Positions 8,597 to 55,355 of a stretch of DNA of 55,378 nt are shown here, one piece after another. Both the position numbers and the translations under genes were made by a program. The DNA is from an uncultured virus (IMG/VR IMGVR_UViG_3300020048_000016). Taxonomy: Duplodnaviria > Heunggongvirae > Uroviricota > Caudoviricetes. How positions within the stretch are numbered: position 1 is the first letter of the stretch; every line of letters starts with the position of its first letter. The notes beneath the pieces were generated by a model, which was given only the letters and a program-made list of their open reading frames with translations, ran no database searches and was not told where the DNA came from. The stretch lies in the IMG/VR virus record IMGVR_UViG_3300020048_000016; one strand, written 5' to 3'.

Positions 8597-8614
8597 TATT
8601 TTATATATAGTTTT

Positions 8615-8884
8615 ATGGAAAATAAATATATTAAAACTTTTGAATCATATATGTCAAACGATGAAATAATATCAGCTATAGAAAAACTTTCAAAAGATGA
8701 GAGAGAATTTTTAATCAACTTCGGAGACGAAAGTGTTTTGAGAAAGATGTTATCATCAGTAGAAATAAAATCTTGTAACAAACTTGTTAAAAAGGGAGTT
8801 ATGGAGAAAGGAATGTTTGATGGATCTGAAGGTAGATCTACGGTTGTTTATTATGTAGATTCATTTGTTAGAAAAAGATTATAA
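8615..8884 (+). CDS. Hypothetical protein with N-terminal leader (KYIKTFESY), possibly winged-helix
   Basis: Leader motif; TTATATATAG immediately upstream. Confidence 0.6.
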   Translation: MENKYIKTFESYMSNDEIISAIEKLSKDEREFLINFGDESVLRKMLSSVEIKSCNKLVKKGVMEKGMFDGSEGRSTVVYYVDSFVRKRL

Positions 8885-8914
8885 AAAAAGCCACTCGATT
8901 TGAGTGGCTTTTTT
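8884..8914. terminator. Bidirectional terminator, CACTC/GAGTG family
   Basis: AAAAAAGCCACTCGATTTGAGTGGCTTTTTT between convergent genes. Confidence 0.8.
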
Positions 8915-8915
8915 A

Positions 8916-9236
8916 TTAATATTTACTTGAACGAATTGTTTTCATTGTTTTTAAAGCACTATACATCTTCTTAAAACGTATACCTTCATCAGAATTTATA
9001 AATTCTTGCCATTTTCCAATTTTTTGCAATTCTTTCATATAGTGATCGATCGCTCTTGGTTCATCAAATTTTGTGCTAATTTGTTTTACCAATTCTTTAT
9101 ATTGATCTTCTATGCTTTTTTCAGGTTCAACTTCTTTTTCAGGTTCAACTTCTTGATTATTTTTACCTACGATGAAATCTTTAACTTTACCAAAAATTGA
9201 TTCATTAAACTCTTCTACACTTTTTAAATATTTCAT
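8916..9236 (-). CDS. Hypothetical protein with N-terminal leader
   Basis: MKYLKSVEEFNESIFGK; EVEPEK repeated twice. Confidence 0.65.
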   Translation of the reverse strand: MKYLKSVEEFNESIFGKVKDFIVGKNNQEVEPEKEVEPEKSIEDQYKELVKQISTKFDEPRAIDHYMKELQKIGKWQEFINSDEGIRFKKMYSALKTMKTIRSSKY

Positions 9237-9276
9237 ATAATATTTTATTTTTTATTATATATTTAAATTTTAAAAC

Positions 9277-9305
9277 AAAAAAAGTCACTCAATGAGTGAC
9301 TTTTT
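9277..9305 (-). terminator. Terminator, CACTC/GAGTG family
   Basis: AAAAAAAGTCACTCAATGAGTGACTTTTT. Confidence 0.75.
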
Positions 9306-9307
9306 AA

Positions 9308-9823
9308 TTATGCTTGTTCTATAGTTACTTTTGTCTCTTCAACATCTGCTAATTTAGTAGCCGTTACAGTTTCAGTGAACTCTAAATATAAGTTTTTAGC
9401 TTTAAGTAATTCTAATACTTCATTAGTAATCTCAAATTTTTCTTTAAGAAAAACAACTTCCATTTTACCAATAACCATATCAACATTGTTAGCAACTGAC
9501 CATTCATCTATGATAGTAGAAAGTTCATCATATGTTACTCGGTTAAGTTCATCCTGTGCTTTCTTCATAGTTGATTTAAATTCAGAATCAATTGCCATTG
9601 CACCTTCCTGAAGTTCATTGAATTTTATTTCACTTTCACTTTGAGATTTCTCATCCATAATTAAACCACTATTTGCTGCTTTAATTATTTTTTCCATCTC
9701 ATTTTTAAGTGGGTCCAACTTTTTGATAAAAGAATTTCTAACTTCTGATAAGTTTATAATTCCGTCTTGATAATTTTTGTAGTTCCTTGTAAGGATGTCA
9801 AAATCTACTACTCTTAATTCCAT
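9308..9823 (-). CDS. OmpH/Skp-like protein lacking a signal peptide
   Basis: VVDFDIL N-terminal strand, long coiled coil, VDMVI...FEITNEVLELL C-terminal signature. Confidence 0.7.
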   Translation of the reverse strand: MELRVVDFDILTRNYKNYQDGIINLSEVRNSFIKKLDPLKNEMEKIIKAANSGLIMDEKSQSESEIKFNELQEGAMAIDSEFKSTMKKAQDELNRVTYDELSTIIDEWSVANNVDMVIGKMEVVFLKEKFEITNEVLELLKAKNLYLEFTETVTATKLADVEETKVTIEQA

Positions 9824-9867
9824 AAAATATATTTTTTCTTATTTATAGTTTTAATAAGTCAAAATGT

Positions 9868-10806: not shown

Positions 10807-12207
10807 TTATTTTGGTAGTTTATTTAACTCATCATCAATCAAATCTTTGATAGTATTGACATCATCTTCTTTACCTTTTCTTAGAAATTCTGCGTAACTA
10901 GATACCTTTTTCATCTTCTCTGGATCATCTTTGATCATACCAAGTTCTTCTGCTGCTTTTTTAGCTTCTTCACTTTTTTGCTCATCTCCGATAACACCAA
11001 CTATATCACTATAACTTCTTTCAATAGTTTTACCATCTTTTTCAAACTTAACACTTTTATCATTGTTTTGATCATTAAGTGCAACCATTTGTCCAACACC
11101 TACAACCTCAGCCTGTTCATCTGGTTTCTTTTTTGCATCATATTTATCTTTTTCAATACCTGGTAATAAATAGATAACTTCTTTCTTATCACCATATATT
11201 TTATTAAGTTTCTCATAGTCCATTCCCTGACCTTCACCTTCTTTAATTCCAAGTAATTTCTCAGCCTCTACTTTTGATAATAACTTATCAACTGGTTTAT
11301 CAAATTTACTTCCTTTATCAGTTTCGATTGAAAATCCTTTAGTCTCATCAAATGCGGTTACTTTACCTTTACCAATAAGTTCTTTTTTAGGTGCTTTTGC
11401 ATCATATCCATCCATCATATAATAGATATCTTTACCTACAAGTTCTTTTTCTTCTTTAACACCATATGAACCAAGAACATCAGTATCATCACCTACTTCA
11501 CCAACACCAGCGAATTTGTTAACTTCTTCTTCTGTTATTGCATTAACAAATTCATACATTTTTTTAACCATAACATTGTTAACCCAGTTCATTACTGCCA
11601 TTTTCTTCTTATCATCTGTAAGACCAGCAATAAGTTTTTTCAATTGTGGAAGATGTGCTTGATCAACAAATCCTTTTGCATCCGCTGTTCTTTGAACTGC
11701 TTTACCTGATTTCAACTCTGGTTTAATTGCAGGTACAGGAAGTGCTTTACCAACTACAAATGATTTAGCAGAACCTGCTCCATATTGAAAGAATACTAGT
11801 GTTTTATTTCTTACACTTTCCAATTCATATTGAACTTCTTTTTTTAATTTCTCATCATCAAAACCTGCTATGAATTCCTGAATACTTTTGGTACTAAGAA
11901 CACCATCATCAGGATCAATTATCTTAGAAATAATATCAAAACAATCTTGATCATTAAACTGTGGTTTTGCATTATATTCTTTAAATACACCAGCAAATAA
12001 ACTTTCTGAACTCTTGACACCAAATAGTTCCGTTTGAAAGTATTTTTTAATATCTTCAAAAGATGTCATTTTTTTAATTTTATCCTGTGCTTTCTTAAAA
12101 ATACCTTTAAGAAAGTCAAGAATTTTACCGAATATTGCCTCTTCATTTACTGGTTCAGCATTTGAGTTCTTAAAAGACTCGAATTTTTTAATATATTTAT
12201 TTTCCAT
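10807..12207 (-). CDS. Hypothetical Lys/Glu-rich protein with N-terminal leader and duplicated C-terminal module
   Basis: MENKYIKKFESF...NEEAIFGK; two IY..YDAK..G.G modules. Confidence 0.7.
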   Translation of the reverse strand: MENKYIKKFESFKNSNAEPVNEEAIFGKILDFLKGIFKKAQDKIKKMTSFEDIKKYFQTELFGVKSSESLFAGVFKEYNAKPQFNDQDCFDIISKIIDPDDGVLSTKSIQEFIAGFDDEKLKKEVQYELESVRNKTLVFFQYGAGSAKSFVVGKALPVPAIKPELKSGKAVQRTADAKGFVDQAHLPQLKKLIAGLTDDKKKMAVMNWVNNVMVKKMYEFVNAITEEEVNKFAGVGEVGDDTDVLGSYGVKEEKELVGKDIYYMMDGYDAKAPKKELIGKGKVTAFDETKGFSIETDKGSKFDKPVDKLLSKVEAEKLLGIKEGEGQGMDYEKLNKIYGDKKEVIYLLPGIEKDKYDAKKKPDEQAEVVGVGQMVALNDQNNDKSVKFEKDGKTIERSYSDIVGVIGDEQKSEEAKKAAEELGMIKDDPEKMKKVSSYAEFLRKGKEDDVNTIKDLIDDELNKLPK

Positions 12208-17317: not shown

Positions 17318-18007
17318 TTAATTTAATATTCTGTAAACAACATCTGGTCTACCACTTTCATATCTTATTGTAGCACTTTGTAACATAGAATCTCGAACGG
17401 TTAATTCACCTGCATAGATAGATTTCTCAGGATCATTTATATCCAATGGTTCAAACTTCCAAGTATCTGGTGAATATTCATCTAAGAAAAAGTCATTTTC
17501 ATCTAATTTAAAACCTAATGACTTATAAAATCCTGTTAGGAAACCATCATAATGATCTAGTTTAGAACCACCAGACTTTATTACTTTATCCATAATAATT
17601 TTACCTACACCACCAACTCTTTCATTATTATGAACAAGTATAATATCACCATCTTCTTTTAAAGCAAATCCAATTTTGTAACCTTCAAGTTTAAATAGTC
17701 TGAATTCTGATAATTCCTCAACTGAATAAGGTGTTAGAAATTCAATTCTCTTAGAAGCGTTAACAGAATCTAAAAATTCATCAGGAGTGGTTTTCCAATT
17801 ACCAGTAGAAATCTTTTCTAGTATATCATTTCGATCCTCATTAGTATCTTCTTTAACAACATCTTCCATTAATAACATATCTAGGTATCTTTTCTCATAT
17901 CTCTCAGAGATACCAGATATCATTTCTACTTCAGGTTGTGCATAATCAACATCATAATCAATAAATCTTTCGTTTACAAATTGACCAAACTTTTTAATTT
18001 TTTTCAT
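17318..18007 (-). CDS. GNAT-like protein with N-terminal leader
   Basis: MKKIKKFGQFVNE; GVGKIIM, LDHYDGFLTGFYKSLGF resembles GNAT motifs A/B. Confidence 0.55.
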   Translation of the reverse strand: MKKIKKFGQFVNERFIDYDVDYAQPEVEMISGISERYEKRYLDMLLMEDVVKEDTNEDRNDILEKISTGNWKTTPDEFLDSVNASKRIEFLTPYSVEELSEFRLFKLEGYKIGFALKEDGDIILVHNNERVGGVGKIIMDKVIKSGGSKLDHYDGFLTGFYKSLGFKLDENDFFLDEYSPDTWKFEPLDINDPEKSIYAGELTVRDSMLQSATIRYESGRPDVVYRILN

Positions 18008-18727: not shown

Positions 18728-18785
18728 ATCATTTTATCAAACTTTTACAATATAGTTTTCTATAAATCAAAAATAAAATTATTAA

Positions 18786-20940: not shown

Positions 20941-21327
20941 TTAAATTACATAAATAACAGGAACTTTATCCATACCAAACCAGCTAAATGCAACTATTCT
21001 ATGTCTACCTTCCATTATAAATCTACTTTCATCATTTAATTCAACAAAAATAGGCATAGGTTTACCACCAACCTCTAATAAATCAAGAATATATTCAGTT
21101 CTATCAAACTCATCTTCATACTCATCAAAAGTGCTCTCCATTTCTGATATAGTATCACTAAACATAGATATTGGTTCTTCTTTATAATAGAATTTTATCT
21201 TATTTATTGGTTTAGATAACCATTCGGAAACATCATCAACATCACTTTTTTGTGAAAGATCAATAACATTTTTTAATGAAATTTTATTAAGTTTGTCAAA
21301 ATTTTCAAATAATTTAATATATCTCAT
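20941..21327 (-). CDS. ParB/Srx-like domain protein with N-terminal leader
   Basis: MRYIKLFENF; PIFV..IMEGRHRIVA..G..KVPV. Confidence 0.7.
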   Translation of the reverse strand: MRYIKLFENFDKLNKISLKNVIDLSQKSDVDDVSEWLSKPINKIKFYYKEEPISMFSDTISEMESTFDEYEDEFDRTEYILDLLEVGGKPMPIFVELNDESRFIMEGRHRIVAFSWFGMDKVPVIYVI

Positions 21328-21794
21328 AGTTCTGATAACCATTTTTTATTAGTCCAAACAAATGGATCTCCTTCAAACTCATCAACACCAAATCCCCATT
21401 TATCTTCTAATATATTAACAAGTTTTTTATTAACAACTGTTGCTGATAATTGGTCCGTTTGTTCATCTTTTTTAAATCTATCAATAAGATCACCCATAAG
21501 ATATTTCAAATATCCTTTATTTCTATAACCCTTTTTAATAATAACATCAAATCTATATTCCCAAGGTAGATAATCAGGATCAAGTAAAATAGAACCAATT
21601 AACTTATTATTCAAATATAATCCATTAAGTGGAAATCCATTAGAATTGAAAGTAGTTATCATATCATGCACTTCATCTAAATGAGCATAAGAAGATAAAT
21701 CTTTACCTTCTACAGGTTCATTAAGAAGTCTAACCTCTAATACAGGCTCTACTTTTGCTTCATTAAACTTATTATAATTCAGTATCTTCTTCAT
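21324..21794 (-). CDS. GNAT acetyltransferase-like protein with N-terminal leader
   Basis: MKKILNYNKFNEA; YRNKGY motif A; N...KWGF. Confidence 0.65.
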   Translation of the reverse strand: MKKILNYNKFNEAKVEPVLEVRLLNEPVEGKDLSSYAHLDEVHDMITTFNSNGFPLNGLYLNNKLIGSILLDPDYLPWEYRFDVIIKKGYRNKGYLKYLMGDLIDRFKKDEQTDQLSATVVNKKLVNILEDKWGFGVDEFEGDPFVWTNKKWLSEL

Positions 21795-22446
21795 CTGTTA
21801 CGTATTGATAAACATATTTTTTAAACCTTTTTAATATATCCGGTTTCATTTTACTATAGATATTTTCAATCCAAGATACTGGTTTCTTACCACCTCTCAA
21901 ATGTTCAATTATATCTTCATTTGACATTCTTTTTTGATGACACTGATCAACAAAAGATTGTGCATAAGCCATTATCTCATCAGTTGAACCGAAATACTTA
22001 TCTGGAACTTTTGGAGAGTTCTCTAAGTTTCTAATTTTTATATGTGGTCTTCTTTGAGCTTGTTGTTGATGAATAGATTCATGTCTTAAAACTTCTCTAA
22101 GGAAAGCGAATAATTTTTCTTTACCAAGATTATCATTAACCGCATTTAGGAATTGATCCCATATAACACAAACATACATTTTATCTGTGTGTACATTATG
22201 AGCAGCAAATCTAATACCACCAAGCATAGGTGGCATATTTTCAGGAACTAATTCAATTTCTTTTTTAGTCTGTAGTTTAGATTTGAAATAATCAACATCT
22301 ACAAATTCTACATTCATAGGTGCTAGAACTCTTTCTAGTTCTTCTTTTGTTATTTCTGGAATAGATTTAAGTTCTTCTATTGCGGGATCGAAGTCATATG
22401 GTTTTATAACTGCTTCATATAATTTAAAAGATCTAATATGTTTCAT
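21772..22446 (-). CDS. HExxH metallopeptidase-like protein with N-terminal leader
   Basis: MKHIRSFKLYEA; LRHESIHQQQ, Y..DEIMAYA. Confidence 0.6.
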   Translation of the reverse strand: MKHIRSFKLYEAVIKPYDFDPAIEELKSIPEITKEELERVLAPMNVEFVDVDYFKSKLQTKKEIELVPENMPPMLGGIRFAAHNVHTDKMYVCVIWDQFLNAVNDNLGKEKLFAFLREVLRHESIHQQQAQRRPHIKIRNLENSPKVPDKYFGSTDEIMAYAQSFVDQCHQKRMSNEDIIEHLRGGKKPVSWIENIYSKMKPDILKRFKKYVYQYVTDEEDTEL

Positions 22447-22527: not shown

Positions 22528-23169
22528 TTATTTTGAAAGAAGTTTGATTAAATCTTCTGTTATAATTGCAATCATTTTTCTACCTTCAACTGTAACAAGA
22601 GGAATGTTTTTAACCATAGAATAAACATCAGTACCATCTACTTTAATTCCTTCAATAAGTTTACAAACTTTAACATCTTTTGAATACTTAGCTAAGTAAT
22701 AAGTTTTAAGTTCGTTAACGAATTTATTCAAATCAACACCTTCTTTATTATTATATTTAACCATTTGAAGTTCATTATCTTGTTTCTCAACCATAATGTA
22801 CCATATAGATTTTTTAGAAACCTTAACATTTTCTAAAAAGTTATACGCTTTTGATGCCTTTACATTTTTTGGGAATTTAGCAACTTTACCAAAAGTTTCA
22901 ACTTTTTCGTTTTTCTCATCATCAGAAAGAAATTCATTCTCTTCACCAGAAGGTAAATCGATATCTTGCTCTTCTGGCTGAAGACCTTTTCTAGATATTG
23001 ACTTCTCAATACTTTTTCTATCTGCGGTTTCTGGTAAATTTGGATTCGCAGGTAAGTCAGAGTCAACCTCTGGTCTACCATTTAATTCAACTTCCTCTAT
23101 CTCTGGTTTTTTAGTCTCTTTGATATCTGAAAATTTTTTAAATCCTGCTATTTTTCTTGATTCTCCCAT
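22528..23169 (-). CDS. Hypothetical protein
   Basis: 213-aa ORF, weak leader (KIAGFKKFSD); TAATATATA upstream. Confidence 0.65.
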   Translation of the reverse strand: MGESRKIAGFKKFSDIKETKKPEIEEVELNGRPEVDSDLPANPNLPETADRKSIEKSISRKGLQPEEQDIDLPSGEENEFLSDDEKNEKVETFGKVAKFPKNVKASKAYNFLENVKVSKKSIWYIMVEKQDNELQMVKYNNKEGVDLNKFVNELKTYYLAKYSKDVKVCKLIEGIKVDGTDVYSMVKNIPLVTVEGRKMIAIITEDLIKLLSK

Positions 23170-25626: not shown

Positions 25627-26370
25627 ATGAGTGAAATAAAATATGCAATTGAGATATTTAAAGAGTATGGATATATGGGTTTGTTAATCGCTATTTTAAT
25701 TGCTATTTTAATTGGTGCATTAAAAGGAGGTGCATTAAAAAGATTATGGTCATATATTAGTGATAAATTTGTTATGACATTTATGAAATCTAAAATAAAA
25801 GATCATAAATCAGTAGAGATATCAATAACAGAGTCGGATGTTATAAACCACGATGTATTTAATTACATAAGTCTTTGGAGATATTCAAAAGTACCGGCTC
25901 TACAATTTTCAACAGAATATAGAACCGTTGTATTTAGAAAATACATTACAATATTTCTTAAAAATTATAGAAGCAATCTAAGTGATTTTATAAACAACAA
26001 TGAATATAAAAATATGAATAGTGCTCAGTTATGGACTGAATTTCTAGGTCTTATGAATAAAACGGTTTATGATTATGAAAAAGAAATGGAAGAAGCAGGT
26101 ATTCCAAAAGTTATTATTGAGAAAATGAAATCAAAAAATAATGACACAATAACACTTATCATCGACTTAATAGAAGGCATTTGCAATTCTCAATTTTATG
26201 ATTCAGAAAATAACTATTTAAAGATTTATTCAATATTAAATATAATACTTTCTGTATTAGAAAACACTATTGCAAATTCGGAAGCAACTTGTAATTCAAT
26301 AAATGGACAATTAGCAGGTTTATCATTTAACGATGGTGGTAGAATTGTAACAGAACCAAAGAAACACTAA
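25627..26370 (+). CDS. Protein with a single N-terminal TM helix
   Basis: YGYMGLLIAILIAILIGAL; TAATATATA at 25600-25608. Confidence 0.65.
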   Translation: MSEIKYAIEIFKEYGYMGLLIAILIAILIGALKGGALKRLWSYISDKFVMTFMKSKIKDHKSVEISITESDVINHDVFNYISLWRYSKVPALQFSTEYRTVVFRKYITIFLKNYRSNLSDFINNNEYKNMNSAQLWTEFLGLMNKTVYDYEKEMEEAGIPKVIIEKMKSKNNDTITLIIDLIEGICNSQFYDSENNYLKIYSILNIILSVLENTIANSEATCNSINGQLAGLSFNDGGRIVTEPKKH

Positions 26371-26615
26371 TGAAGTATCTAGAAACATATAAAATATTCG
26401 AATCTAAATCTAAGATTAAATTCGTTAAGCAGCAGAATAAAAAAGATGCTAAGACTGAAATATATAATGTCGTTAAAGGTAGTTCTGTGATTGGTCAAAT
26501 AAAATGGTCCTCTAGAAATAGAGGTTATGCTTTTCTACCTGAGAAAGATCATGATAATGAGATAAAAGAATTCATTAAAGATTTAATGAAGAAAAGAAAA
26601 GAACTAAAACATTAA
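26370..26615 (+). CDS. Small basic protein with N-terminal leader
   Basis: MKYLETYKIFES. Confidence 0.65.
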   Translation: MKYLETYKIFESKSKIKFVKQQNKKDAKTEIYNVVKGSSVIGQIKWSSRNRGYAFLPEKDHDNEIKEFIKDLMKKRKELKH

Positions 26616-27196: not shown

Positions 27197-27778
27197 TTAG
27201 AAGTTTATTGTTGCGCCAATATAATTAGATCCACTCATTCTAGTGAAATTAAATCTAACCTCATGTTTATGTATATCAACTGCTTTACTATAATTGATAT
27301 CTAATATTGGAATAAGTTTTACTTCCGCAGATACTGCTTGAACCATATAATAGTTTATTTTAAATGGTAGACCCGGTTTAGAAAGTAAATCTAAATCAGA
27401 TAAAGAAAGTTTTGGTAGTTTATTTGATATTAAATTTGAATTGAATTGTGTTAAACTTCTTTCTAAAAAAGAAAGTGTCTCTGCATTATTGTTATTAAAA
27501 TCAATAGGATCTTTACTTTCTATCTTCTCATCAATCACTAATTGAGGATTTTCTGTTGAGATTGTATCAACAAGTGATTCTAATGATTTATTTATATCTT
27601 TATTAACAACCGATGTATCACTAACTTCAACAGGAACTACTGGTTCATTACCAACAGGTGTGTTAGCATTTACCGGGTTCGAAACAGAAGACGCAGCGAT
27701 TGCACCACCTATTAAAGCATTTTTTAAAAAACCCTTTTCTTCATTTAAGAAGTCATTATATCCCTTAATATTTCTCAT
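27197..27778 (-). CDS. Hypothetical protein with N-terminal leader and hydrophobic segment
   Basis: MRNIKGYNDFLNEE then KNALIGGAIAASSV. Confidence 0.65.
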   Translation of the reverse strand: MRNIKGYNDFLNEEKGFLKNALIGGAIAASSVSNPVNANTPVGNEPVVPVEVSDTSVVNKDINKSLESLVDTISTENPQLVIDEKIESKDPIDFNNNNAETLSFLERSLTQFNSNLISNKLPKLSLSDLDLLSKPGLPFKINYYMVQAVSAEVKLIPILDINYSKAVDIHKHEVRFNFTRMSGSNYIGATINF

Positions 27779-28230
27779 TTTTTAATTGTTGTTATATTTG
27801 TTTTCTTTTCAAAGTCATTGAAGTTCATAACTTTTGGTTGTTTTACTTCACCTTCACCTGCAGTAAAATCTTGATCTTTATTAAACAATATGCTTTTAAG
27901 TGCTGCTTTTGCAACCCCTGATCTTGATTTTCTTTCACCAACTGAACCATGTGATCTCGTCTTTCTTTCACCAGTAGGTTCTTTTTGGTAAACATTTTTT
28001 TTACCGGTTCCCATATTAAGAGGGTTACTTATATAACCTCCTACTTTACCACCATTATTAGTATATGCTGGATCAACCGTTTGTCCAGATAAAGAAGAAG
28101 GTTGTGCGTTACTATCCATTGAAACCGGCATTGAACTAACACTACCACCAGATACAGAACCTGCTGGACCACCAGTTGCTGATGTATCTTCATTAATTGA
28201 ATAATCTTCGAATTTTTTTAAATGTTCCAT
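27775..28230 (-). CDS. Gly/Ser-rich protein with N-terminal leader
   Basis: MEHLKKFEDYSINED; leader-like KVMNFNDF near the C-terminus. Confidence 0.65.
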   Translation of the reverse strand: MEHLKKFEDYSINEDTSATGGPAGSVSGGSVSSMPVSMDSNAQPSSLSGQTVDPAYTNNGGKVGGYISNPLNMGTGKKNVYQKEPTGERKTRSHGSVGERKSRSGVAKAALKSILFNKDQDFTAGEGEVKQPKVMNFNDFEKKTNITTIKK

Positions 28231-28299: not shown

Positions 28300-28911
28300 A
28301 TGAGCAAACTAAAGCAATTAGAAGTTAAAAGATTGATAAAAGAATTAGACTTTTTAGGTTCAGATTTTGAGTATAAAAATGAATTAGTTTTTGAAGCAGA
28401 TAATAGTTTTATTAAAAATGTAAATGATTTTCTAGATGATAATCCAGAAGTTAAAAAAATATTCGATCGTAAGATAAATGATAGATTGGATAAAATAATT
28501 ATGAATAAAGTTGAAAAGGAGAATATAATCGATGAAGACAATTTAATAATCGATGAAGTAGAAGAGATCTCTATCAAAAAGGATAATAAAATTAAAAAGA
28601 TATACAGAGAAATCGCTAAGATGACTCACCCAGATAAAATAGATAATAAAAAACTAAATGATATTTATATCAAAGCAAGTAATCACTATGATAATAATGA
28701 TGTAATTCAAATATATTCTATATGTGATGAACTAGGAATTGAATATGATATAAATGAAGATGATACCGAACTAATAATAAACAACATTAATAATATTAAA
28801 CAAAAGATACAATTTATAGAATCAACAACAACTTGGAAGTGGTACTATACAGAAGATGAAGGTTTAAAAAATGAAATAATTTTAAACTATATAAGATCAC
28901 AAATTAAATAA
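28300..28911 (+). CDS. J-domain-like protein
   Basis: IKKIYREIAKMTHPDK (HPD motif); likely start 28300. Confidence 0.65.
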   Translation: MSKLKQLEVKRLIKELDFLGSDFEYKNELVFEADNSFIKNVNDFLDDNPEVKKIFDRKINDRLDKIIMNKVEKENIIDEDNLIIDEVEEISIKKDNKIKKIYREIAKMTHPDKIDNKKLNDIYIKASNHYDNNDVIQIYSICDELGIEYDINEDDTELIINNINNIKQKIQFIESTTTWKWYYTEDEGLKNEIILNYIRSQIK

Positions 28912-29587
28912 TAGTGAGTTTAACACTTTTATCATCTGAATTATTTTTAATAGAGTCAATCAATTCTTCTAATTCTTCGTTTCTCAATATTTTTTTATAT
29001 TTATCTGTTTCTTTTTCGGAATTCTTTAATATCCAATCATTGCCATTACTAGTTGAATAGATATAGTCAACTTCATCATCACTAATTTTAATTGTTTTAG
29101 AAGACAATTTAGTGTAGAAATCATTAACATTACCACCAATTTTATATAATTTAACAGGTGTCCATTCATTAGAAGATTTGTGTAAAACTTGAAATAGTAT
29201 ATAAATAGGATTTTGTAAATCATGTGCATTTTGTTCGTAAATAAACATAAACTTACAAGGTTTGTTTATAAATGTTGATAAGTCATTACTATTTTGAACT
29301 TCTGATATTCTAAATCCTTTTTTTGATAAAGAATTTATAAATTTAGTGTATGGTTGATTTCTATCACCATCACCACAAAGATAATCTAGATCCAATTTGC
29401 TATTATCTTTATAATCATTTTTATTCATACCAAGTTCAGAAAATAGATCCGTCTCTTCAGCAGAGATTGATTTAAGTAAAACATCATGCCAATCTATATT
29501 CAAAGATTCACTCAAATCAATAGACTGGAACTTAATATCAATAACTATTGACTCTTGATATTTTGAATAAGATTTCAACCAACGCAT
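28904..29587 (-). CDS. Hypothetical protein with N-terminal leader
   Basis: MRWLKSYSKYQES. Confidence 0.65.
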   Translation of the reverse strand: MRWLKSYSKYQESIVIDIKFQSIDLSESLNIDWHDVLLKSISAEETDLFSELGMNKNDYKDNSKLDLDYLCGDGDRNQPYTKFINSLSKKGFRISEVQNSNDLSTFINKPCKFMFIYEQNAHDLQNPIYILFQVLHKSSNEWTPVKLYKIGGNVNDFYTKLSSKTIKISDDEVDYIYSTSNGNDWILKNSEKETDKYKKILRNEELEELIDSIKNNSDDKSVKLTII

Positions 29588-29602
29588 AAATGAATAATAA
29601 AT

Positions 29603-29620
29603 TTTAATATATATATTAAA
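29603..29620. promoter_or_regulatory. Palindromic, bidirectional TAATATATA motif (putative late promoter)
   Basis: TTTAATATATATATTAAA, a perfect palindrome between two divergent leader-bearing genes. Confidence 0.55.
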
Positions 29621-29636: not shown

Positions 29637-31055
29637 ATGAAATGGGTTAAAAATTATAAATTGTTCAAAGAATCTAAACAAGATTCAATATATTCTGTTA
29701 AAAACTTAGTGCAAGAGATATGTGTAAGTATGGTATTAATTAACAATGAGTTTCTTGATAATATATTAGACAGAGGTCTTAAAGCTAGATACTCAGAAGA
29801 TTCATCTGTATTTATAACAGATTTAAAAAATCTTCTACTTGCTAAAAATAGATTAAACCTTGGTCGCTTCGAAGGTAATAAATGTATTGTAGATGATGAG
29901 ATATCAAAGATATCAGGTCTTTTCGAAGCAACTGAATTCAGTATAGAAAAAGATTGGGATAAATTATCAAGTGCTAGAACAACTGCTAGAAATATAATTG
30001 ATAAACTTTTAAGTGATGAGAAATTATCTTCTGATAGGATTAGAATGATTTATTGGTTAGGACCAAATATCGACTCAGAACATCAAGAAAATATAGTTAT
30101 TGAATTAAATGACGGTAAACAATATTCTTTATTTTTAAATAAAAACTTAGCAACACAAAAAACCGCAAGTTTTAATACATTCGCAGATGATCTAATTGGA
30201 ACCGATATTCAAAAATTATATAATGATGATTACCTTACACACTGGAATAAACTAACTCAAGAGTGGGTAAAAATTATTTATGAAAATGCAAATAAAGATA
30301 TTCAAAAACATATAGAGAAGTTTATAGATCCTAGAAGAATTGAAACTATGGGTTACTTTGAGTACTTTGATATAAGACACCAAGATCCTAGATATAAACA
30401 TTTAGGTGAATTTATTGATGTGTTTGATAAAAACATTTTGAAATTCTCAGATCTTTTAAATGAGATATGGAAGAAAAAAGATAATTGTTTTATGGATGTA
30501 GAACGAGTAACAGAAGAATGGTTAGAGACTAAGATCGTTATTATGAACTCTAAAATTCTTGAAAATCTTTTAACAACATCTTTAAAAACAAATTTCTCAG
30601 AAGATATTCAAAAAACAGAGAATGAATTAAAATTAGCAAATGGCACTGTTAAAATGAAATTGTTTAAAACTATTGTTGAGAAAATGGGTTGTCTAGAAAG
30701 AAATCTTTACTTCTTAGGTAATAATGGTAATGTATTCAATATGGTTCCATCAAGAGAATTTTTCAGAAAATATTATGAAGATCTAACATTGAAATTTGAT
30801 TACCACGTTAACTTCGTTGTTAATGAAGAAGATGAAGAGAACAATGACTTTATAATAAAAATAATACTTGAACTCGATGGTGAACAATTAATTGAGATGT
30901 TTATAAATGTTAAGTTTGCTGGTGGTGAGATGTCTGGTAAATTAAATGCTAAATATAAATTCGAATTAGCAGATAACTTTAACTATTTAATTTCAAAGAA
31001 ACAATTAAGTGAATTTGAGCCAAATTCAGATGAAGAAGATAATTTAGAAGACTAA
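29637..31055 (+). CDS. Hypothetical protein with N-terminal leader
   Basis: MKWVKNYKLFKES; 472 aa. Confidence 0.7.
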   Translation: MKWVKNYKLFKESKQDSIYSVKNLVQEICVSMVLINNEFLDNILDRGLKARYSEDSSVFITDLKNLLLAKNRLNLGRFEGNKCIVDDEISKISGLFEATEFSIEKDWDKLSSARTTARNIIDKLLSDEKLSSDRIRMIYWLGPNIDSEHQENIVIELNDGKQYSLFLNKNLATQKTASFNTFADDLIGTDIQKLYNDDYLTHWNKLTQEWVKIIYENANKDIQKHIEKFIDPRRIETMGYFEYFDIRHQDPRYKHLGEFIDVFDKNILKFSDLLNEIWKKKDNCFMDVERVTEEWLETKIVIMNSKILENLLTTSLKTNFSEDIQKTENELKLANGTVKMKLFKTIVEKMGCLERNLYFLGNNGNVFNMVPSREFFRKYYEDLTLKFDYHVNFVVNEEDEENNDFIIKIILELDGEQLIEMFINVKFAGGEMSGKLNAKYKFELADNFNYLISKKQLSEFEPNSDEEDNLED

Positions 31056-40944: not shown

Positions 40945-41160
40945 ATGGAGTATTTAGACAAATATGATAAATTAGTCAAAATTCTTACAGAAGAAATTGA
41001 AATCGATGGTAAGAAATATGATCTTAAAGAAGACTTTGAGAAATTTTTCATAAGAGAAAATAAAACTGCTGGAACTCGTGTAAGAAGAGTTATGCAAGAG
41101 TTGAAAAAACTCGCACAAGAAGTCAGAGATGACGTTCAGAAAGAAAAAAAAGACATTTAA
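40945..41160 (+). CDS. Hc1-like (histone H1-like) nucleoid protein
   Basis: DFEKF..NKTAGTRVRRVMQELKKLAQEVR. Confidence 0.75.
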   Translation: MEYLDKYDKLVKILTEEIEIDGKKYDLKEDFEKFFIRENKTAGTRVRRVMQELKKLAQEVRDDVQKEKKDI

Positions 41161-41209: not shown

Positions 41210-41779
41210 ATGAAATACATTAAACTATTTGAAAACTTTGATGGTGGCACACATATAGAAGATGCTAAGTGGATCGTTATATCTCATCTTGGAGAAGTAG
41301 AAGAAATTGAAATAGATCCTAAATGGAATGCTAAAAACTTATTTGAATTTGAACTTCAAGAAATACCAACTTCCAATCAAATAGAAAGTTGCAGAGAACA
41401 TCTTAGTGAAGAAGGTTTCTTTCTAGAATTAAACGAGAATAGTATTGTTGGAACCACCGGCGTAGGTAAGTCTCTAAAAGATTATTATATTAATTGGTTA
41501 AACGAAAACTTCAGTAATATGGATATTTTTGAAAGTAAAGATAGACCAGGATGCATTTTATATAGATATATTGCTAAAGATAATGTATTTATTTACGATA
41601 AAAAAAATGCAGAAGTTTATATAAATTATAATAAAATTTGGTCATTTTTTGAGAGTTATTTTAGTATGGAATATAAGGAAATACAAGAGTTAACTGAGGA
41701 GTGGTTGAGTGAAGCATACAATTTAAAGGGAGTTACAACACAAGCAGTAGCAGCACCCAAAGCACTTGCTGTTGAGTGA
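41210..41779 (+). CDS. WLEETY paralog family member 3, with leader
   Basis: MKYIKLFENF; WLNENF, IWSFF, EWLSEAYNL. Confidence 0.75.
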   Translation: MKYIKLFENFDGGTHIEDAKWIVISHLGEVEEIEIDPKWNAKNLFEFELQEIPTSNQIESCREHLSEEGFFLELNENSIVGTTGVGKSLKDYYINWLNENFSNMDIFESKDRPGCILYRYIAKDNVFIYDKKNAEVYINYNKIWSFFESYFSMEYKEIQELTEEWLSEAYNLKGVTTQAVAAPKALAVE

Positions 41780-41809: not shown

Positions 41810-42412
41810 ATGAAATATATTAAACTATTTGAGAACTTTAACAATGATACATTAGAAGATTCTAAGTGGATTATTATATCTCATCTTGGTGAAGTAGAAG
41901 ATGTTGAGATTGATTCTAGATGGAATGCTAAGAATATATTAAGACTAGAACTTTTAGAAGCACCAACAGAGGATCAGATAAAAAGATGTGAAGAACATCT
42001 TAAAGAAGAAGGCTTCTTTTTATTTATGACCGGTACTGATTGGTCAAAAGAAAATGAAAATGTTAGCATAATAGTAGGAGTTGGTAGTTCGTTAGAAGAT
42101 GTTGTAACCAAATGGTTAGATGATAATTTTAGTAACTTAAAAAGAGTAGATTATGGAACTACTGCATTTTTCACCGAAGATCATAGTTTAAAAAAAATAG
42201 AGGTCACTGATATTCCTAGAAGTGTTATATTTTATACCGATCCTGTTAGTCTTTCACATACTTTCACAAAGGTTAATTGGAGCAAATTGTGGCAATTTCT
42301 TGATCATGATTTATTTTTGAATAGAGATCAGATAAGAGAAATTCTTAAAAAATGGATAGAAAAAACATACGGATTAGAAGATATACCACCATTAGATTGG
42401 GCAAATATCTAA
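41810..42412 (+). CDS. WLEETY paralog family member 4, with leader
   Basis: MKYIKLFENF; ISHLGEVE, WNAKN shared with member 3; KWIEKTYGL. Confidence 0.75.
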   Translation: MKYIKLFENFNNDTLEDSKWIIISHLGEVEDVEIDSRWNAKNILRLELLEAPTEDQIKRCEEHLKEEGFFLFMTGTDWSKENENVSIIVGVGSSLEDVVTKWLDDNFSNLKRVDYGTTAFFTEDHSLKKIEVTDIPRSVIFYTDPVSLSHTFTKVNWSKLWQFLDHDLFLNRDQIREILKKWIEKTYGLEDIPPLDWANI

Positions 42413-42489: not shown

Positions 42490-42699
42490 ATGAAATACAT
42501 TAAAAAACATCCAGTTCATACAGATAAAGATTTGAATTTATCTGACGATATGAAGAAACAAGATCATGTTGATGCACCATCTAACAAAAAATTAGATGCA
42601 GATAAAAGTCTTAGCGATCCAACAATATCTAAAAAAGTAAGTAAACCTTCTAACAAAAAATTAGACGGTGAAAACTTTTTATCAAAAGATCAGAAATAA
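42490..42699 (+). CDS. Small hydrophilic protein with partial leader
   Basis: MKYIKK; PSNKKLD repeated twice. Confidence 0.6.
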   Translation: MKYIKKHPVHTDKDLNLSDDMKKQDHVDAPSNKKLDADKSLSDPTISKKVSKPSNKKLDGENFLSKDQK

Positions 42700-45554: not shown

Positions 45555-45589
45555 AAAAAAAAATACTGGATCAAATCCAGTATTTTTTT
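45555..45589 (-). terminator. Rho-independent terminator
   Basis: AAAATACTGGAT-CAA-ATCCAGTATTTT with A/T tracts. Confidence 0.75.
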
Positions 45590-46017
45590 TATCTTTCTAA
45601 TATTTGAATCATAACATCTAATATGTGATCCTCGTTACTAATCGAACCACCGAATCCATATCCATCTGCGTGTGACTCATAATCAAAAACTAGTTTTCCA
45701 TCAAGTTTAACCTCACCAGAAACCACACCCTCATCATACTCGTTATATTTAGTAGAATAGTCTACATCGAATCTACGCTCAAATTCGTCATATGTTGCTT
45801 CAGCATAAGCTTCGTCTTTTCCTGCAGATAGAAGGCTATCACTCAATATCTCACAACACTTCGTTACAAATTGATCACCATTTCCGTAGTCGTACAATCC
45901 ATCAACATAGTCCTCTAGTTCTTTTTCTAGTTCACTCGAAGTCGTCTCTGCGTTAACCAAAAATCCAAAATCATGCTCTTCGTTCTCAAAAAGTCTGTAA
46001 TTTTTAATATACTTCAT
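45589..46017 (-). CDS. Acidic protein with N-terminal leader
   Basis: MKYIKNYRLFENEE; TAATATATA at 46038-46046 (minus). Confidence 0.7.
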   Translation of the reverse strand: MKYIKNYRLFENEEHDFGFLVNAETTSSELEKELEDYVDGLYDYGNGDQFVTKCCEILSDSLLSAGKDEAYAEATYDEFERRFDVDYSTKYNEYDEGVVSGEVKLDGKLVFDYESHADGYGFGGSISNEDHILDVMIQILER

Positions 46018-48563: not shown

Positions 48564-48830
48564 TTAGTTATACGTTTCGATAACATCTAATAATTCAGAC
48601 TTAGTGATACCAACTTTAAGATATTTTGATACAATCCAATCAAAAATTTCATCACCATCTAAATCATTTTTAACATCATTCCACTCACTACCTTCTACTT
48701 CATCATAACCCAATAAATCTTCTGCTATAGAAAAAAGTGAATCAATATCCAAATCTTTTAATAATTCTGATATCTCATCTTCTTTCAAATTTGATTCATT
48801 AAATTGTTCTTTACTTTTTAAATGTTTCAT
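48564..48830 (-). CDS. Acidic protein with N-terminal leader
   Basis: MKHLKSKEQFNES. Confidence 0.65.
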   Translation of the reverse strand: MKHLKSKEQFNESNLKEDEISELLKDLDIDSLFSIAEDLLGYDEVEGSEWNDVKNDLDGDEIFDWIVSKYLKVGITKSELLDVIETYN

Positions 48831-51702: not shown

Positions 51703-52017
51703 ATGAAAAATATTAAAACATTTGAAGGTTTCGTGAATGAAAGCAAAACCGTATCTTTAGATAATATGTCAGACGTAAATTTAAAAAAGTACAACTCTTT
51801 AATATCCTTTGTAAATAGAACTGTTGAGAAATTATTAGCGAGAGAAGGAGAATTACCAACATCTTATTTTAAACCAGGTTTAGAAGCGAGATTAGATGCG
51901 TTAACTAATAACATTAAGACTATAAAAGATATTGATGATAACATTAGTGAAATCATCTCAGTACACGCAGATCTAAAAGATGGTATCAAAGGAATGAAAG
52001 CGTCAGGTAGATTATAA
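51703..52017 (+). CDS. Hypothetical protein with N-terminal leader
   Basis: MKNIKTFEGFVNES; TAATATATA at 51676-51684. Confidence 0.7.
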   Translation: MKNIKTFEGFVNESKTVSLDNMSDVNLKKYNSLISFVNRTVEKLLAREGELPTSYFKPGLEARLDALTNNIKTIKDIDDNISEIISVHADLKDGIKGMKASGRL

Positions 52018-52467: not shown

Positions 52468-52468
52468 A

Positions 52469-52987
52469 TTAATTTCTTTTAAGTATTAAACATCTTTCTT
52501 TATCTAACTTAGGTATACCTGCCATACCAACTTCATCATCAGTTACAACTTCACTCATAATGATTTCAACATCCCATCTATCTTGACTTAGTGATTTCAA
52601 TAGTGATTTAGCATCACAACTTCTACATGTAGTATTATACTTATGAGCATTTGAATCACAGTCAAAGTTTTTAGCACAATCTCTTATGAACTCATAATAC
52701 TTGTTAGTGTCTGTAAGTTCGATGGATTTTTTGAACCCTCTAAGGAAGCCAACGTGAAATTGTATTTTTTCCATACCTGGGGTATTAGTAGGTAGTAACT
52801 CAGATTCTTTATTAACTAATTCATCTAAGTCATAACCTAGTTCAACCGATTCACAATTCTTTATATTTAGTTTATAAAGTTCATGTTCATTTGCTAATTC
52901 AGAATTTGATATGGCATAAAGATCATCAATATCATTTGTTAATGATAAGGTATAACCTTCTACCATTTTAATTAAAGTTGCTTTCAT
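52469..52987 (-). CDS. Hypothetical phage protein
   Basis: MKATLIK, KNC..GYDLDEL, WDVEI, PKLD..CLILK. Confidence 0.65.
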   Translation of the reverse strand: MKATLIKMVEGYTLSLTNDIDDLYAISNSELANEHELYKLNIKNCESVELGYDLDELVNKESELLPTNTPGMEKIQFHVGFLRGFKKSIELTDTNKYYEFIRDCAKNFDCDSNAHKYNTTCRSCDAKSLLKSLSQDRWDVEIIMSEVVTDDEVGMAGIPKLDKERCLILKRN

Positions 52988-52993
52988 ATATCA

Positions 52994-53071
52994 TTAGTTT
53001 GAATCTTTAGCTGCCATAAATAAGGCGTATCCTCCTACGACTATGACTACAATGAATAGTAATGTACACAT
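52994..53071 (-). CDS. 25-aa hydrophobic peptide (not in ORF track)
   Basis: MCTLLFIVVIVVGGYALFMAAKDSN*; TATATTTG at 53092-53099 (minus). Confidence 0.45.
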   Translation of the reverse strand: MCTLLFIVVIVVGGYALFMAAKDSN

Positions 53072-53139
53072 ATTATTTTTTATATAGAATACAAATATAT
53101 GGAATTAATTTTAATATATACATTTAATAAAATAATTAT

Positions 53140-54587
53140 ATGATGAGATATATTAAATTTTTTGAAGAATTTAAAGGTAAAAGAGTTATTGTTAAATCTG
53201 AAGATAAAAAGAAGTTAAGAGAAATAACCAGAGTTATAATTAAGTACTGTAAAGAGGATAAGTTAACTAAGGGTATTCATGATAAATATCCTGTGTTATT
53301 TGATTTAGGTGAATTGAAAAATCTATTAAAAAGTGGTAATTATTTATATGTTAACCCCAATCCAAATAGATTAGAAATAGATAATAAAAAACATAAAGAT
53401 GATGGTTATAAGCTAGTTGATGATTATGCTAATAAACTTTCTAAGTTAAGAGGGGTAGATATTATCTTTGATAGAAAGAATGGATGTTTTACAACCGCAT
53501 CTGGGAAAGCTATGACAACTGTTAATGTTGTTTCTGAATACCCTAAAGAAAGTAACATGTCTGATAATACTGCTGGATTTCAAAATGGTAGTAATCAAAG
53601 AGTTTTTATAAATTATAAAACTGGTGATGTTGTTAGTAAATTTCATAAATCTTCAGATTATATGGTAGTTTGGGATTTTACAGGTGATAATATTTATATG
53701 TCAATTAATCGTGATATTAGAAGAGCTAGAAAAACAGATGGGAAAACTCTTTTAGAAGATATTTTTTCAACATTATATCATGAATTCATTCATTCTAATG
53801 ATCCTCTTTGTTGGGCTAATGATTATTTAGATAATAAAGAAATTTATGGTGAGGAAAGAGGTGGTGTATATGCTAGTCATGATAAAGAGGTTCAAACATT
53901 TTCTAATCAATTTTTAGAGTTAATAGAGTACTATTTTGAAAAAACTCTAAGAGGTGATACAGATGGTAATGGAGTTAATTATGATTTACCAAAAGAACAT
54001 ATAAATAACGTTTTTATTCCGGTTATAATGGAGATTGTAAAGTTTATAAATGCTGAGTCTGATAAATTAAGTGATTTTGTTATTTCAGAGTTATCGGGTA
54101 CTAATAAAAATAGTAGTAGTACTAGGTCAGTTTCTCAACATTTAGTTAATATGAGAAATGAGGATGCTGAAGATGGTAAAGTTATTAGACAATGGTTAAG
54201 AGATGACTTTAATAGATTTGTTGATTATTATAATTTGAAAGTGATTGAAATAAATAAGAAAAAAGAGAAGGGTCAAGAACTACCTCTTTTACATAAAGGA
54301 TTTCCATTTGAATTAACACCAGTAAAACCAACACCTGNNNNNNNNNNTTCTCAAATGCTAATCCTAATGTTATAGTTGATGTGAAGAAAAGATTAGAAAC
54401 ATTACTTAAAGATTTAAAAACTAATAACCCAGTAAGAATTAAAGATTCCGTAAGAGTTTTTTATTCTAATATAAGTCCAAAATTATCTGATAGTAATGTA
54501 TCAAGTTGGTTGAAATCACCTGAGGGTGTAAAATGGGGAGAAACAATAGTTAAGTATGAAAACTTAGTCTCACATATTTTAAAATAA
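53140..54587 (+). CDS. HExxH metallopeptidase-like protein with leader, interrupted by a scaffold gap
   Basis: MRYIKFFEEF; LYHEFIHSND, Y.SHDKEVQTF; after the N gap the frame FSNANPNVIVDVKKRL runs to 54587. Confidence 0.6.
54338..54347. other. Scaffold gap (10 N)
   Basis: N run. Confidence 1.
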
Positions 54588-54590
54588 ATA

Positions 54591-54767
54591 TTATTTATCT
54601 TTCTTATTATATTTAGTTAACCAAGATTGGAAGTTTTCATAGGTCCATTCATCTACAAAGTCGTCACCCCATGTCAACTTTGAATATTGTTTACGACCAG
54701 CTTTAAAAGCCTTCTTCAAATCTTCTTCTGTGTAAACCTTAATAGGTTCATTTGTTTCTTCACTCAT
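54591..54767 (-). CDS. Small hypothetical protein (58 aa, not in ORF track)
   Basis: MSEETNEPIKVYTEEDLKKAFKAGR...FQSWL; TATTTTTG at 54772-54779, 4 nt before the ATG. Confidence 0.6.
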   Translation of the reverse strand: MSEETNEPIKVYTEEDLKKAFKAGRKQYSKLTWGDDFVDEWTYENFQSWLTKYNKKDK

Positions 54768-54803
54768 AATACAAAAATAGGAATTATTTTTAATATATAC
54801 ACT

Positions 54804-55355
54804 ATGAGAATAAAAAGTTGGAGGAAGTTCTTCGAATCGGTTGAAGATAGTTTAGAAGACATCAAATGGGTTTTAGTTGACTATGATAATATAGTTCCTT
54901 ATGATTATTATCCTAACTCAACTAATTTACTTGTATTCAGAGTATCTGGTTATGGATTATCAAAAGCTGATTTTGAGAGAATAAAAAGACTTTCTAATGA
55001 AGAAGGTTGGAGTGTTGTAAATAAGCCAGGATTTCTTATTTTCTATAAAGGAACTAAAGAAGAAGCTATTTTAAATTGGTTAGATGAGAATTATAATAAT
55101 CTTAAAATTAAAGTTATATCAAAAGGTGAAGACCAATACTATAAGGAAAATGAGTATCTAATTTCATTTACTGTTGATAAAACTTTTAATCCGAATTATG
55201 AATTACTTTATAACAATATATTTATGAAAAGTGATTTATATTATATACCACATGTTTGTATTGGAGATGCTAAATTATTAGATGATATTTTAAAGAAGTG
55301 GTTAGAAAGGACTTATGGTATTAATAATGTAACTAACATTTATTATGTGGATTGA
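54804..55355 (+). CDS. WLEETY paralog family member 5, with leader
   Basis: MRIKSWRKFFES, LEDIKWVL, WLDENY, KWLERTYGI; TAATATATA at 54791-54799. Confidence 0.7.
   Translation: MRIKSWRKFFESVEDSLEDIKWVLVDYDNIVPYDYYPNSTNLLVFRVSGYGLSKADFERIKRLSNEEGWSVVNKPGFLIFYKGTKEEAILNWLDENYNNLKIKVISKGEDQYYKENEYLISFTVDKTFNPNYELLYNNIFMKSDLYYIPHVCIGDAKLLDDILKKWLERTYGINNVTNIYYVD

Follow-up and report, generated by a model that had tools for sequence, protein, structure and literature searches.

A candidate capsid-targeting leader shared by many unrelated proteins of an uncultured huge phage

Why should proteins with unrelated bodies begin with the same short peptide? This question is raised by the IMG/VR record IMGVR_UViG_3300020048_000016, a stretch of 55,378 nucleotides (nt) from an uncultured virus of the Caudoviricetes, the whole of which is referred to here as the window. 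It contains 87 genes (greedy call of ATG-initiated open reading frames, ORFs), and 20 of these, i.e. about one gene in four, open with a peptide of 10-14 residues of the form M-[KR]-x-[LIV]-[KR]-x-[FY]-x-x-[FY], designated below as the leader. A first-pass annotation of the window had compared the leader with the capsid-targeting sequence (CTS) of phage T4, and had proposed that it loads a large set of cargo proteins into the phage head for injection. The analysis presented here suggests that the leader is probably a portable N-terminal propeptide, representing a greatly expanded version of the T4-like capsid-targeting kind.

The regular expression [KRE]-x-[ILVM]-[KR]-x-[FYWV]-x-x-[FYW], sought within the first 16 residues, was found at 17 of the 87 N-termini of the window, as compared with 2 of 15,851 internal positions, and 1000 shuffles of residues 2-25 gave a mean of 0.15 and a maximum of 3 matches. 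The enrichment at N-termini over both shuffled and internal sequence, on which the original proposal depended, was thus confirmed, and a chance origin of the shared N-termini in the window is excluded. A position matrix trained on 17 of the leaders gave a score of at least 8, our threshold for a leader-bearing protein (bearer), to 20 ORFs of the window; in its leave-one-out form, it recovered 16 (score 8) or 18 (score 6) of the 87. All 21 starts initially listed as the main bearers open an ORF with the motif on the strand given for them, and 20 of them reach the threshold. The three copies listed as weaker fared differently: the ORF starting at 23169 has a leader-like stretch, which is shifted (score 5.4), that starting at 42490 shares only six residues, and that starting at 42708 does not carry the leader (-9.3).

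The G+C content of the window is 28-29%. Among its products, Pfam and PHROGs identify a baseplate wedge protein, FolD, DHFR, MazG-type enzymes, a C5 DNA methyltransferase, glycosyltransferases, ClpP, an M50 peptidase, HU and an Hc1-like histone. The baseplate wedge protein is most closely related to those of two uncultured phage records, LR745206.1 (634,780 bp; 65.8% identity) and LR756502.1 (64.4%). More distant matches are encoded by LR756504, LR756501/503 (735 kb) and LR756500, and the farthest ones by Lak phages and cultured jumbo phages of Bacteroidota. Positions 522,980-572,561 of LR745206 are collinear with the window, and a megablast search with 15 kb of the latter gave no match among phage records. 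In public data, six runs from two freshwater studies contain at least half of the words sampled from an 8-kb stretch, and no RNA run was among the matches. According to PMC7162821, genomes larger than 634 kb fall in the "Mahaphage" clade, whose predicted hosts are Bacteroidetes; the window is assigned to a Bacteroidota-type "Mahaphage".

The leader is also present in these relatives. In LR745206.1, which was taken whole (927 ORFs called), the matrix trained on the window gave a score of at least 8 to 74 of the 927 ORF starts and to 24 of 164,140 internal positions. Several of the internal matches fall on a Met that lies 4-48 residues inside the called ORF and seem to be the real starts of miscalled ORFs; with such cases included, 81 bearers were accepted in LR745206, which together with the 20 of the window constitute the 101 bearers considered below. 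The regular expression matched 34 of the 927 ORFs (shuffled mean 1.1). A strict pattern at the DNA level was found 26 times in LR745206, 39 times in LR756502, 34 times in LR756504, 14 times in LR756500 and once in LR756501, whereas its control, read backwards, gave 0-1 matches. Among other related phage genomes, the strict pattern gave no match in Lak-B1, PTm1, MaF61 and MA9V-2, and one in pT24. The leader is therefore specific to the clade and is no by-product of base composition. A pattern scan of IMG/VR returned at least 130 stretches, mostly with single matches on scattered contigs, and was uninformative.

The codons used at the conserved positions vary (AAA or AAG; AGA or CGT; TAT or TAC; ATT or ATA; TTA, CTA, CTT or TTG; TTT or TTC), and the amino acid (aa) replacements within the leader are conservative (K/R, I/L/V, F/Y). 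Selection therefore acts on the peptide and not on the DNA.

The proteins behind the leader are diverse. The 101 bearers fall into 81 BLASTP families, of which 72 are singletons and one has 11 members. Within the window, a single paralog family was recognized (ORFs starting at 31055, 31680, 41210, 41810 and 54804) and no further pair was linked by BLASTP at 1e-3, in agreement with the earlier statement that the bodies are mostly unrelated. The accompanying claim that no recognizable metabolic gene carries the leader was nearly right, the exception being the gene at 21324-21794 (minus strand), which has a GNAT domain behind the leader. This is the only Pfam domain among the 20 leader proteins of the window, while 24 of the 67 other genes have one; in LR745206, a Pfam domain was found in 2 of the 81 leader proteins, in both cases that of a NUDIX hydrolase (18783-19250 and 70479-71036). 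The bearers are small, with a median of 161 aa and a range of about 60 to 555 aa. Membrane-type hydrophobic segments are present in 2 of the 101, as opposed to 91 of 913 other proteins, and the leader proteins are predicted to be soluble.

A BLASTP match in LR745206 (1e-5) was lacking for 14 of the 20 leader genes of the window and for 30 of the 67 other genes, which is a modest difference. Some bearers are conserved core genes. The 472-aa protein (29637-31055) has 1158 homologs; of the best 120 of these, 114 start with the leader, five carry it just behind an upstream start and one is without it. In the 41810 family, the leader was found in 43 of 44 homologs, in two of them behind a short N-terminal extension. 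Homologs were also seen on contigs of 179,378 and 686,955 bp. AlphaFold2 models were obtained for one member of each of these groups. In the 472-aa protein, residues 1-17 have a predicted local distance difference test (pLDDT) value below 50, with a mean of 71 for the body; in the 41810..42412 protein, the same holds for residues 1-11, with a mean of 84. The leader is thus the best conserved part, yet lies outside the predicted fold, which suggests that it behaves like a linear signal or a propeptide. The 472-aa protein gave no Foldseek match at E ≤0.001 (best VIA-align Z 5.0), and a likeness to the HinP1I restriction endonuclease (Z 4.8) was rejected as lying within the noise. For the body of the 200-aa paralog (41810), no PDB match was found at E ≤0.001, and the only BFVD matches were uncharacterised phage proteins.

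We also inspected the head module of the relatives. The capsid protein of LR745206 belongs to the Gp23 family (PF07068, 88.7 bits, above the cut-off) and also matches solved chains of T4 gp23 (E 0.0014). A comparison of its N-terminal 140 residues with solved structures returned nothing useful, and the T4 cleavage site was not mappable by alignment. Directly upstream of the capsid gene lies an ORF of 707 aa (LR745206.1 198546-200669), whose product has, in approximately its first 170 residues, a weak match to Peptidase_S77 (gp21 family, PF03420; 20.1 bits, E 1.1e-4). Behind this putative protease domain there are approximately 11 tandem repeats of 14 residues (NIxYSEY[LI]AENLDK), each containing [LI]AE/N, where the slash denotes here and below the predicted cut point after Glu; the repeats are followed by an acidic tract and a C-terminal domain. 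The 707-aa protein looks like a scaffold built for cutting into 14-residue pieces. The scaffold repeats are also present in LR756502, LR756504 and LR756501, and in a looser form in LR756500. The N-terminus of the 707-aa protein carries IIE/N at residues 6-9.

Near residue 44, [IML]-x-E/[ND] is retained by the capsid proteins from six related genomes, in the forms INE/N, IHE/N, MNE/N, LYE/N and LNE/D. A motif of this type, [ILMVF]xE[SANDEG], was found within positions 7-18 of 53 of the 101 leaders, as compared with 115 of 913 N-termini of other proteins; farther along the leader proteins, at positions 41-52, it is present in 7 of 101. By sequence, the hydrophobic-x-Glu motif is common to the leader ends, the scaffold repeats and the capsid-protein junction. 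The proteins starting at 9236 and 12207 continue alike past the Glu (SIFGKVKDF and EAIFGKILDF), as had been noticed in the first-pass annotation. Two other links between the leader and the head module were considered: (i) a co-variation of the leader with the scaffold repeats is unsupported, since LR756501 has the repeats and only one pattern match, and (ii) the leader as a copy of the end of the capsid propeptide is rejected, that region being scored -7.8 by the leader matrix, a value that 2.3% of internal positions reach or exceed. As regards LR756501.1 (735 kb), its scaffold repeats and capsid-protein junction are as in the relatives, yet it has one strict leader match; this phage may use another leader.

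The strongest single case is that of the window protein encoded at 27775-28230, in which the leader ends in SINE and is followed by DTSATGGP. The orthologs encoded by LR745206 and LR756502 begin instead with 43 unrelated residues, reading LILE/TSATGGPAG and MILE/DTSATGGP, respectively, around the Glu, and the similarity among the three orthologs begins exactly past the Glu. What precedes the Glu can therefore be exchanged, a property to be expected of a propeptide. A leader protein of LR745206 (r93266; 93266-93520) reads MRYLKPYKKFIE/NADGSSTSGMGAV and continues with a capsid-protein-like stretch: it is 58% identical, over 38 residues, to the stretch located right after INE/N of the capsid protein (E 8e-8, local database). 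The LR745206 ortholog r554784 (554784-555284) exhibits 45% identity over 51 columns to the capsid stretch after INE/N.

All three proteins (27775-28230, r93266 and r554784) contain, past the predicted cut, a sequence that resembles the N-terminus of the mature capsid protein (SGMGAV..AQP..LAG..GSGD), and end in a basic tail. Such proteins may reside inside the head and exploit the N-arm contacts of the capsid protein. In the proteins with the capsid-like continuation, the leader, as judged from the alignments, occupies the place of the propeptide of the capsid protein.

A further connection with virion genes is provided by a promoter-like motif, AATATATA. In LR745206, it is located at most 60 nt upstream of 41 of the 81 leader genes and of 141 of the 846 other genes (odds ratio 5.1, Fisher p 4e-11). 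In the window, a looser form of the motif precedes 11 of the 20 leader genes and 13 of the 67 others. Over the whole window, AATATATA is no more frequent than in shuffles (20 vs 16.45); the signal lies in its placement and not in window-wide abundance. Between the end of the motif and the ATG of the leader genes of LR745206 there are 0-9 nt in 27 cases and 20-34 nt in 14, and the shorter distance is suggestive of messages that have almost no untranslated 5' part.

The PHROG names of the 115 other motif-bearing genes of LR745206 were compared with those of 129 motif-free genes (the remainder of 147 genes of at least 220 aa, from which 18 were dropped for size). The motif precedes genes for the portal, large terminase, head decoration protein, tail tube, tail fibre, baseplate wedge and head-tail adaptor, as well as a gp63-like ligase and two endolysins. 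The motif-free set includes the genes for DNA polymerase, primase and helicases, as well as those for ligase, ribonucleotide reductase, thymidylate synthase, SSB, an elongation factor and NAD enzymes, and its only virion or lysis genes encode a baseplate hub and one endolysin-like protein. The late promoters of T4 are short -10 elements with no -35 (PMC9026906), and AATATATA is read here as a putative late-type promoter.

The T4-like reading of the leader is favoured because (i) the relatives have a T4-type head module, and the Glu motif recurs in leader ends, scaffold repeats and the capsid junction, (ii) the leader is exchanged exactly at the Glu, and three proteins continue like the mature capsid N-terminus, (iii) the promoter-like motif is common to leader, virion and lysis genes, and (iv) the bearers are soluble and mostly without known domains, with the leader outside the fold in both AlphaFold2 models. 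We propose that the leader works like the T4 CTS; given the weak protease match, strict membership is left unclaimed. According to the mechanism envisaged, the amphipathic leader, in which positions 4 (L/I/V) and 7 (F/Y) are the most constant, would dock the new protein onto the prohead core during assembly of the shell. A gp21-like prohead protease would then cut after the Glu of the hydrophobic-x-Glu motif, at or just behind the leader, which would free the mature protein inside the head, and at least part of the cargo would accompany the DNA out of the head at infection. All of these steps, from docking through cleavage and residence in the head to injection, are inferred. In the initial interpretation, the part describing a protease-removable, head-targeting tag has gained several indirect lines in its favour, while the injected cargo is pure inference.

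Several observations weigh against this reading. The bearers are acidic (median pI 5.0), and the internal proteins of T4 are basic. The hydrophobic-x-Glu motif at positions 7-18 is clear in only 53-66 of the 101 leaders, i.e. about half, and about half of the leader genes are without the promoter-like motif, which also precedes UvsX-like, SbcC-like, HNH, methyltransferase and PhoH genes. Position 4 is occupied by L, I or V in all 101 bearers and position 7 by F or Y in 97 of them, which are also the residues that determine targeting in T4, but these counts are partly circular because the set was chosen by a matrix that rewards those residues. No head genes were found in the window itself, the head module having been read from relatives at about 65% protein identity, and the gp21-like match (20.1 bits) is below the Pfam cut-off of 27. 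The propeptide of the capsid protein itself is not scored by the leader matrix. The presence of scaffold repeats together with a single strict match in LR756501 implies that this type of head does not require the leader. Finally, leader cargo amounting to about 9-10% of all ORFs would far exceed that of any phage in the compared literature.

In the strongest competing explanation, the leader docks its bearers not to the prohead but to another partner that they have in common, such as a chaperone, a compartment for replication or assembly, or an export route, and its likeness to T4 is convergent. A conserved short linear motif placed outside the fold of unrelated bodies would fit any shared binding partner, 9-10% of ORFs is a large number for head cargo, and LR756501 has the scaffold repeats without the leader. 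We nevertheless consider this explanation unlikely: the swap at the Glu and the capsid-like continuation link at least three bearers to head maturation, the Glu motif is common to the scaffold repeats and the capsid-protein junction, the promoter-like motif is common to leader and virion genes, and the depletion of membrane-type segments argues against export or membrane targeting.

Much less probable is a role of the leader in marking proteins for timed degradation by ClpP or Lon-type proteases of the phage itself. Some N-terminal Met-basic-hydrophobic motifs are recognised by ClpX, a ClpP is encoded in the window (44189-44923, PF00574, 181.7 bits), and LR745206 encodes two ClpP-like proteins and a Lon-like protease. 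However, no ClpX-type unfoldase was seen in the window with Pfam and PHROGs, and such a tag leaves unexplained both the Glu motif of the scaffold and capsid protein and the swap at the Glu. An mRNA-level or translation-start signal, e.g. of messages that have almost no 5' untranslated part, would agree with the A/T-rich leader codons and with the upstream motif ending 0-9 nt before the ATG in 27 of the 41 motif-bearing leader genes, some of whose messages may start near the start codon, but it is highly improbable in view of the synonymous codon variation, the conservative replacements at the protein level, the failure to find the pattern in related phage genomes and the lack of a leader in highly expressed genes such as that of the capsid protein. 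A single old paralog family, with bodies diverged beyond recognition and the N-terminus as the slowest-evolving remnant, has in its favour the one true paralog family of the window and the 11-member family among the 101 bearers, and is just as improbable, given the 81 BLASTP families of about 60 to 555 aa, the leader on unrelated known folds (GNAT, NUDIX), the body that occurs with two different N-termini and the location of the leader outside the fold in both models.

A tentative extension of the capsid-targeting reading, which may prove too broad, is that a clade of phages of 0.46-0.64 Mb could have turned the T4 tag into a general address system, by which about one protein in ten, from 80 or more fast-changing families including NUDIX and GNAT proteins, would be loaded into the head, cut at the Glu and delivered with the DNA. 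Huge phages have hundreds of genes of unknown function. If the leader marks head cargo, it would provide the first functional assignment for about 20 genes of the window and about 80 of the complete relative: the tagged proteins would be late products that are packaged in the head and probably act from the first moments of the next infection, which would place them among the candidates for counter-defence and host takeover. The leader plus hydrophobic-x-Glu would constitute a testable rule for finding cargo in metagenomes. Under the broader reading, sequence alone could suffice to read out the set of effectors that an uncultured giant phage injects, and the leader might be used as a loading tag for foreign proteins. 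A mechanism that serves a handful of T4 proteins would thereby be extended to a scale not described in the compared literature. Two observations on head maturation are independent of this reading, namely the candidate protease fused to a scaffold of cut-site repeats and the small proteins that copy the mature capsid N-terminus.

The leader genes of the window and the features associated with them are listed in Table 1.

Table 1. Leader genes and related features of the window. Score, value given by the position matrix; a slash marks the predicted cut point after Glu; id, identity.
Feature	Coordinates	Strand	Length (aa)	N-terminus or sequence	Score	Remarks
Leader gene	8615..8884	+	89	MENKYIKTFESY	23.8	Leader from residue 3; TTATATATA 14 nt upstream; no homolog in LR745206
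Leader gene	8916..9236	-	106	MKYLKSVEEFNE/SIFGKVKDF	22.2	AATATATA upstream
Leader gene	10807..12207	-	466	MENKYIKKFESFKNSNAEPVNE/EAIFGKILDF	27.9	LR745206 ortholog (26.9% id) retains leader and EPVNE/E
Leader gene	17318..18007	-	229	MKKIKKFGQFVNE/R	21.6	phrog_2563, unknown function
Leader gene	20941..21327	-		MRYIKLFENF	26.9	Further ATG five codons upstream (21342) in open frame
Leader gene with GNAT acetyltransferase body	21324..21794	-	156	MKKILNYNKFNE/A	10.3	PF00583, E 2e-5
Leader gene	21772..22446	-	224	MKHIRSFKLYE/A	19.0	26.7% id to LR745206 leader protein
Weak, shifted leader-like stretch	22528..23169	-		MGESRKIAGFKKF	5.4	After 5-residue extension; gene adjoins baseplate genes; ortholog 66% id
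Leader gene	26370..26615	+	81	MKYLETYKIFE/S	8.9	Body matches only C-terminal 72 aa of 222-aa LR745206 leader protein
Leader gene	27197..27778	-	193	MRNIKGYNDFLNE/E	17.9	
Leader gene	27775..28230	-	151	MEHLKKFEDYSINE/DTSATGGPAG	16.8	
Leader gene	28904..29587	-	227	MRWLKSYSKYQE/S	17.3	Ortholog (46.9% id) keeps leader
Palindrome	29600..29620	both		TTAATATATATATTAA		Between two divergent leader genes; AATATATA at 29606+ and 29610-
Leader gene	29637..31055	+	472	MKWVKNYKLFKE/S		Widely conserved
Leader gene, paralog family	31055..31651	+	198	MKYLKLFENFNNE/D	29.1	
Leader gene, paralog family	31680..32267	+	195	MKYIKLFENFDN	30.3	
Leader gene, paralog family	41210..41779	+	189	MKYIKLFENFDG	28.6	AATATATA 13 nt upstream
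Leader gene, paralog family	41810..42412	+	200	MKYIKLFENFNN		
Doubtful member	42490..42699	+		MKYIKK	-6.2	First six leader residues only
Leader gene	45589..46017	-	142	MKYIKNYRLFE/N	24.0	AATATATA upstream
Leader gene	48564..48830	-	88	MKHLKSKEQFNE/S	18.7	
Leader gene	51703..52017	+	104	MKNIKTFEGFVNE/S	24.9	AATATATA upstream
Leader gene	53140..54375	+	411	MMRYIKFFEEF	25.3	Leader from residue 2; AATATATA upstream
Degenerate leader gene	54804..55355	+		MRIKSWRKFFE/S	1.6	Body paralogous to 41810 family, which has four strong bearers

Some other genes of the window deserve mention. The gene at 40945-41160 (+) encodes a histone H1-like Hc1 protein (PF07432, E 1.8e-16), 70% identical to its counterpart in LR745206, and is preceded by the AATATATA motif; its product may be a DNA-condensing protein made late. 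A 1381-aa ORF at 32304-36449 (+) has no Pfam or PHROG match and shares 37.7% identity over 512 residues with a 1491-aa ORF of LR745206; since the latter has the promoter-like motif, the 1381-aa ORF may encode a virion protein. The 560-aa protein encoded at 36974-38656 (+) combines an MGS-like domain, the first approximately 60 residues of the AICARFT/IMPCHase (PurH) family and an AAA ATPase domain, and its ortholog in LR745206 consists of the C-terminal ATPase part only (alignment from residue 245).

The ClpP gene mentioned above, located on the minus strand, and that of the M50-family peptidase (49023-49625, minus strand) encode products 81% and 54% identical, respectively, to the LR745206 copies, which are situated elsewhere in that genome (at 75 kb and 54 kb), outside the collinear block. 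Two further genes are unusual for a phage: that at 2317-2910 (+), encoding a bifunctional-nuclease domain protein with a UVR motif (63.5% identity in LR745206), and that at 9308-9823 (-), encoding an OmpH-like chaperone protein (52%).

Literature searches, supplements excluded, found no paper on a leader of this type, and the available parts of PMC7162821, bioRxiv 10.1101/2025.02.27.640493 and 10.1101/2021.07.26.453748 do not mention one. Two groups of known systems are suitable for comparison. The first comprises phiKZ, 201phi2-1 and SPN3US, which are giant phages too and have a gp21-related protease cutting after Glu in a short motif (PMC5694885, PMC10052503 and PMC9026906). Many internal head proteins of these phages are processed, and their propeptides are thought to target them into the prohead. 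Unlike the leader, these propeptides are mostly 100-250 residues long and protein-specific, and do not constitute one shared short tag. The three phages are cultured, with 8-19 processed proteins each and cuts seen by mass spectrometry.

The second system is the CTS of T4, which is carried by internal proteins IPI-III and Alt and removed by gp21 (Mullaney and Black 1996, as cited in PMC9026906, PMC9958956, PMC5694885 and PMC3012670). The T4 sequence quoted in the first-pass annotation was not found in PMC9026906. The same sources state that the first 10 residues of IPIII suffice for loading, residues 4 and 7 being the main determinants of targeting and residues 8 and 10 those of processing, that a Glu-to-Asp change abolishes the T4 cut (PMC9026906), that the internal proteins of T-even phages form a diverse set in which only the CTS is conserved (PMC3012670), and that the proteases of T4, phiKZ, 201phi2-1 and SPN3US all cut after Glu in a short motif (PMC5694885). 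Compared with this published description, the leader is likewise a peptide of approximately 10-14 residues at the extreme N-terminus of otherwise unrelated, fast-changing proteins, with key hydrophobic positions 4 and 7 and, in about half of the cases, a candidate site ending in Glu behind it, and the lineage has, as seen in the relatives, a gp23-type capsid protein and a candidate gp21-type protease. It differs from T4 in that (i) about 80 or more families and 9-10% of ORFs are involved, as opposed to a handful of proteins, (ii) the bearers are acidic and the distance from the leader to the Glu varies (positions 8-22), and (iii) the scaffold consists of 14-residue repeats and forms one protein with the candidate protease. 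By analogy, the design of the leader is the same as that of the T4 CTS, and it is in scale, acidity and the repeat scaffold that the two systems differ.

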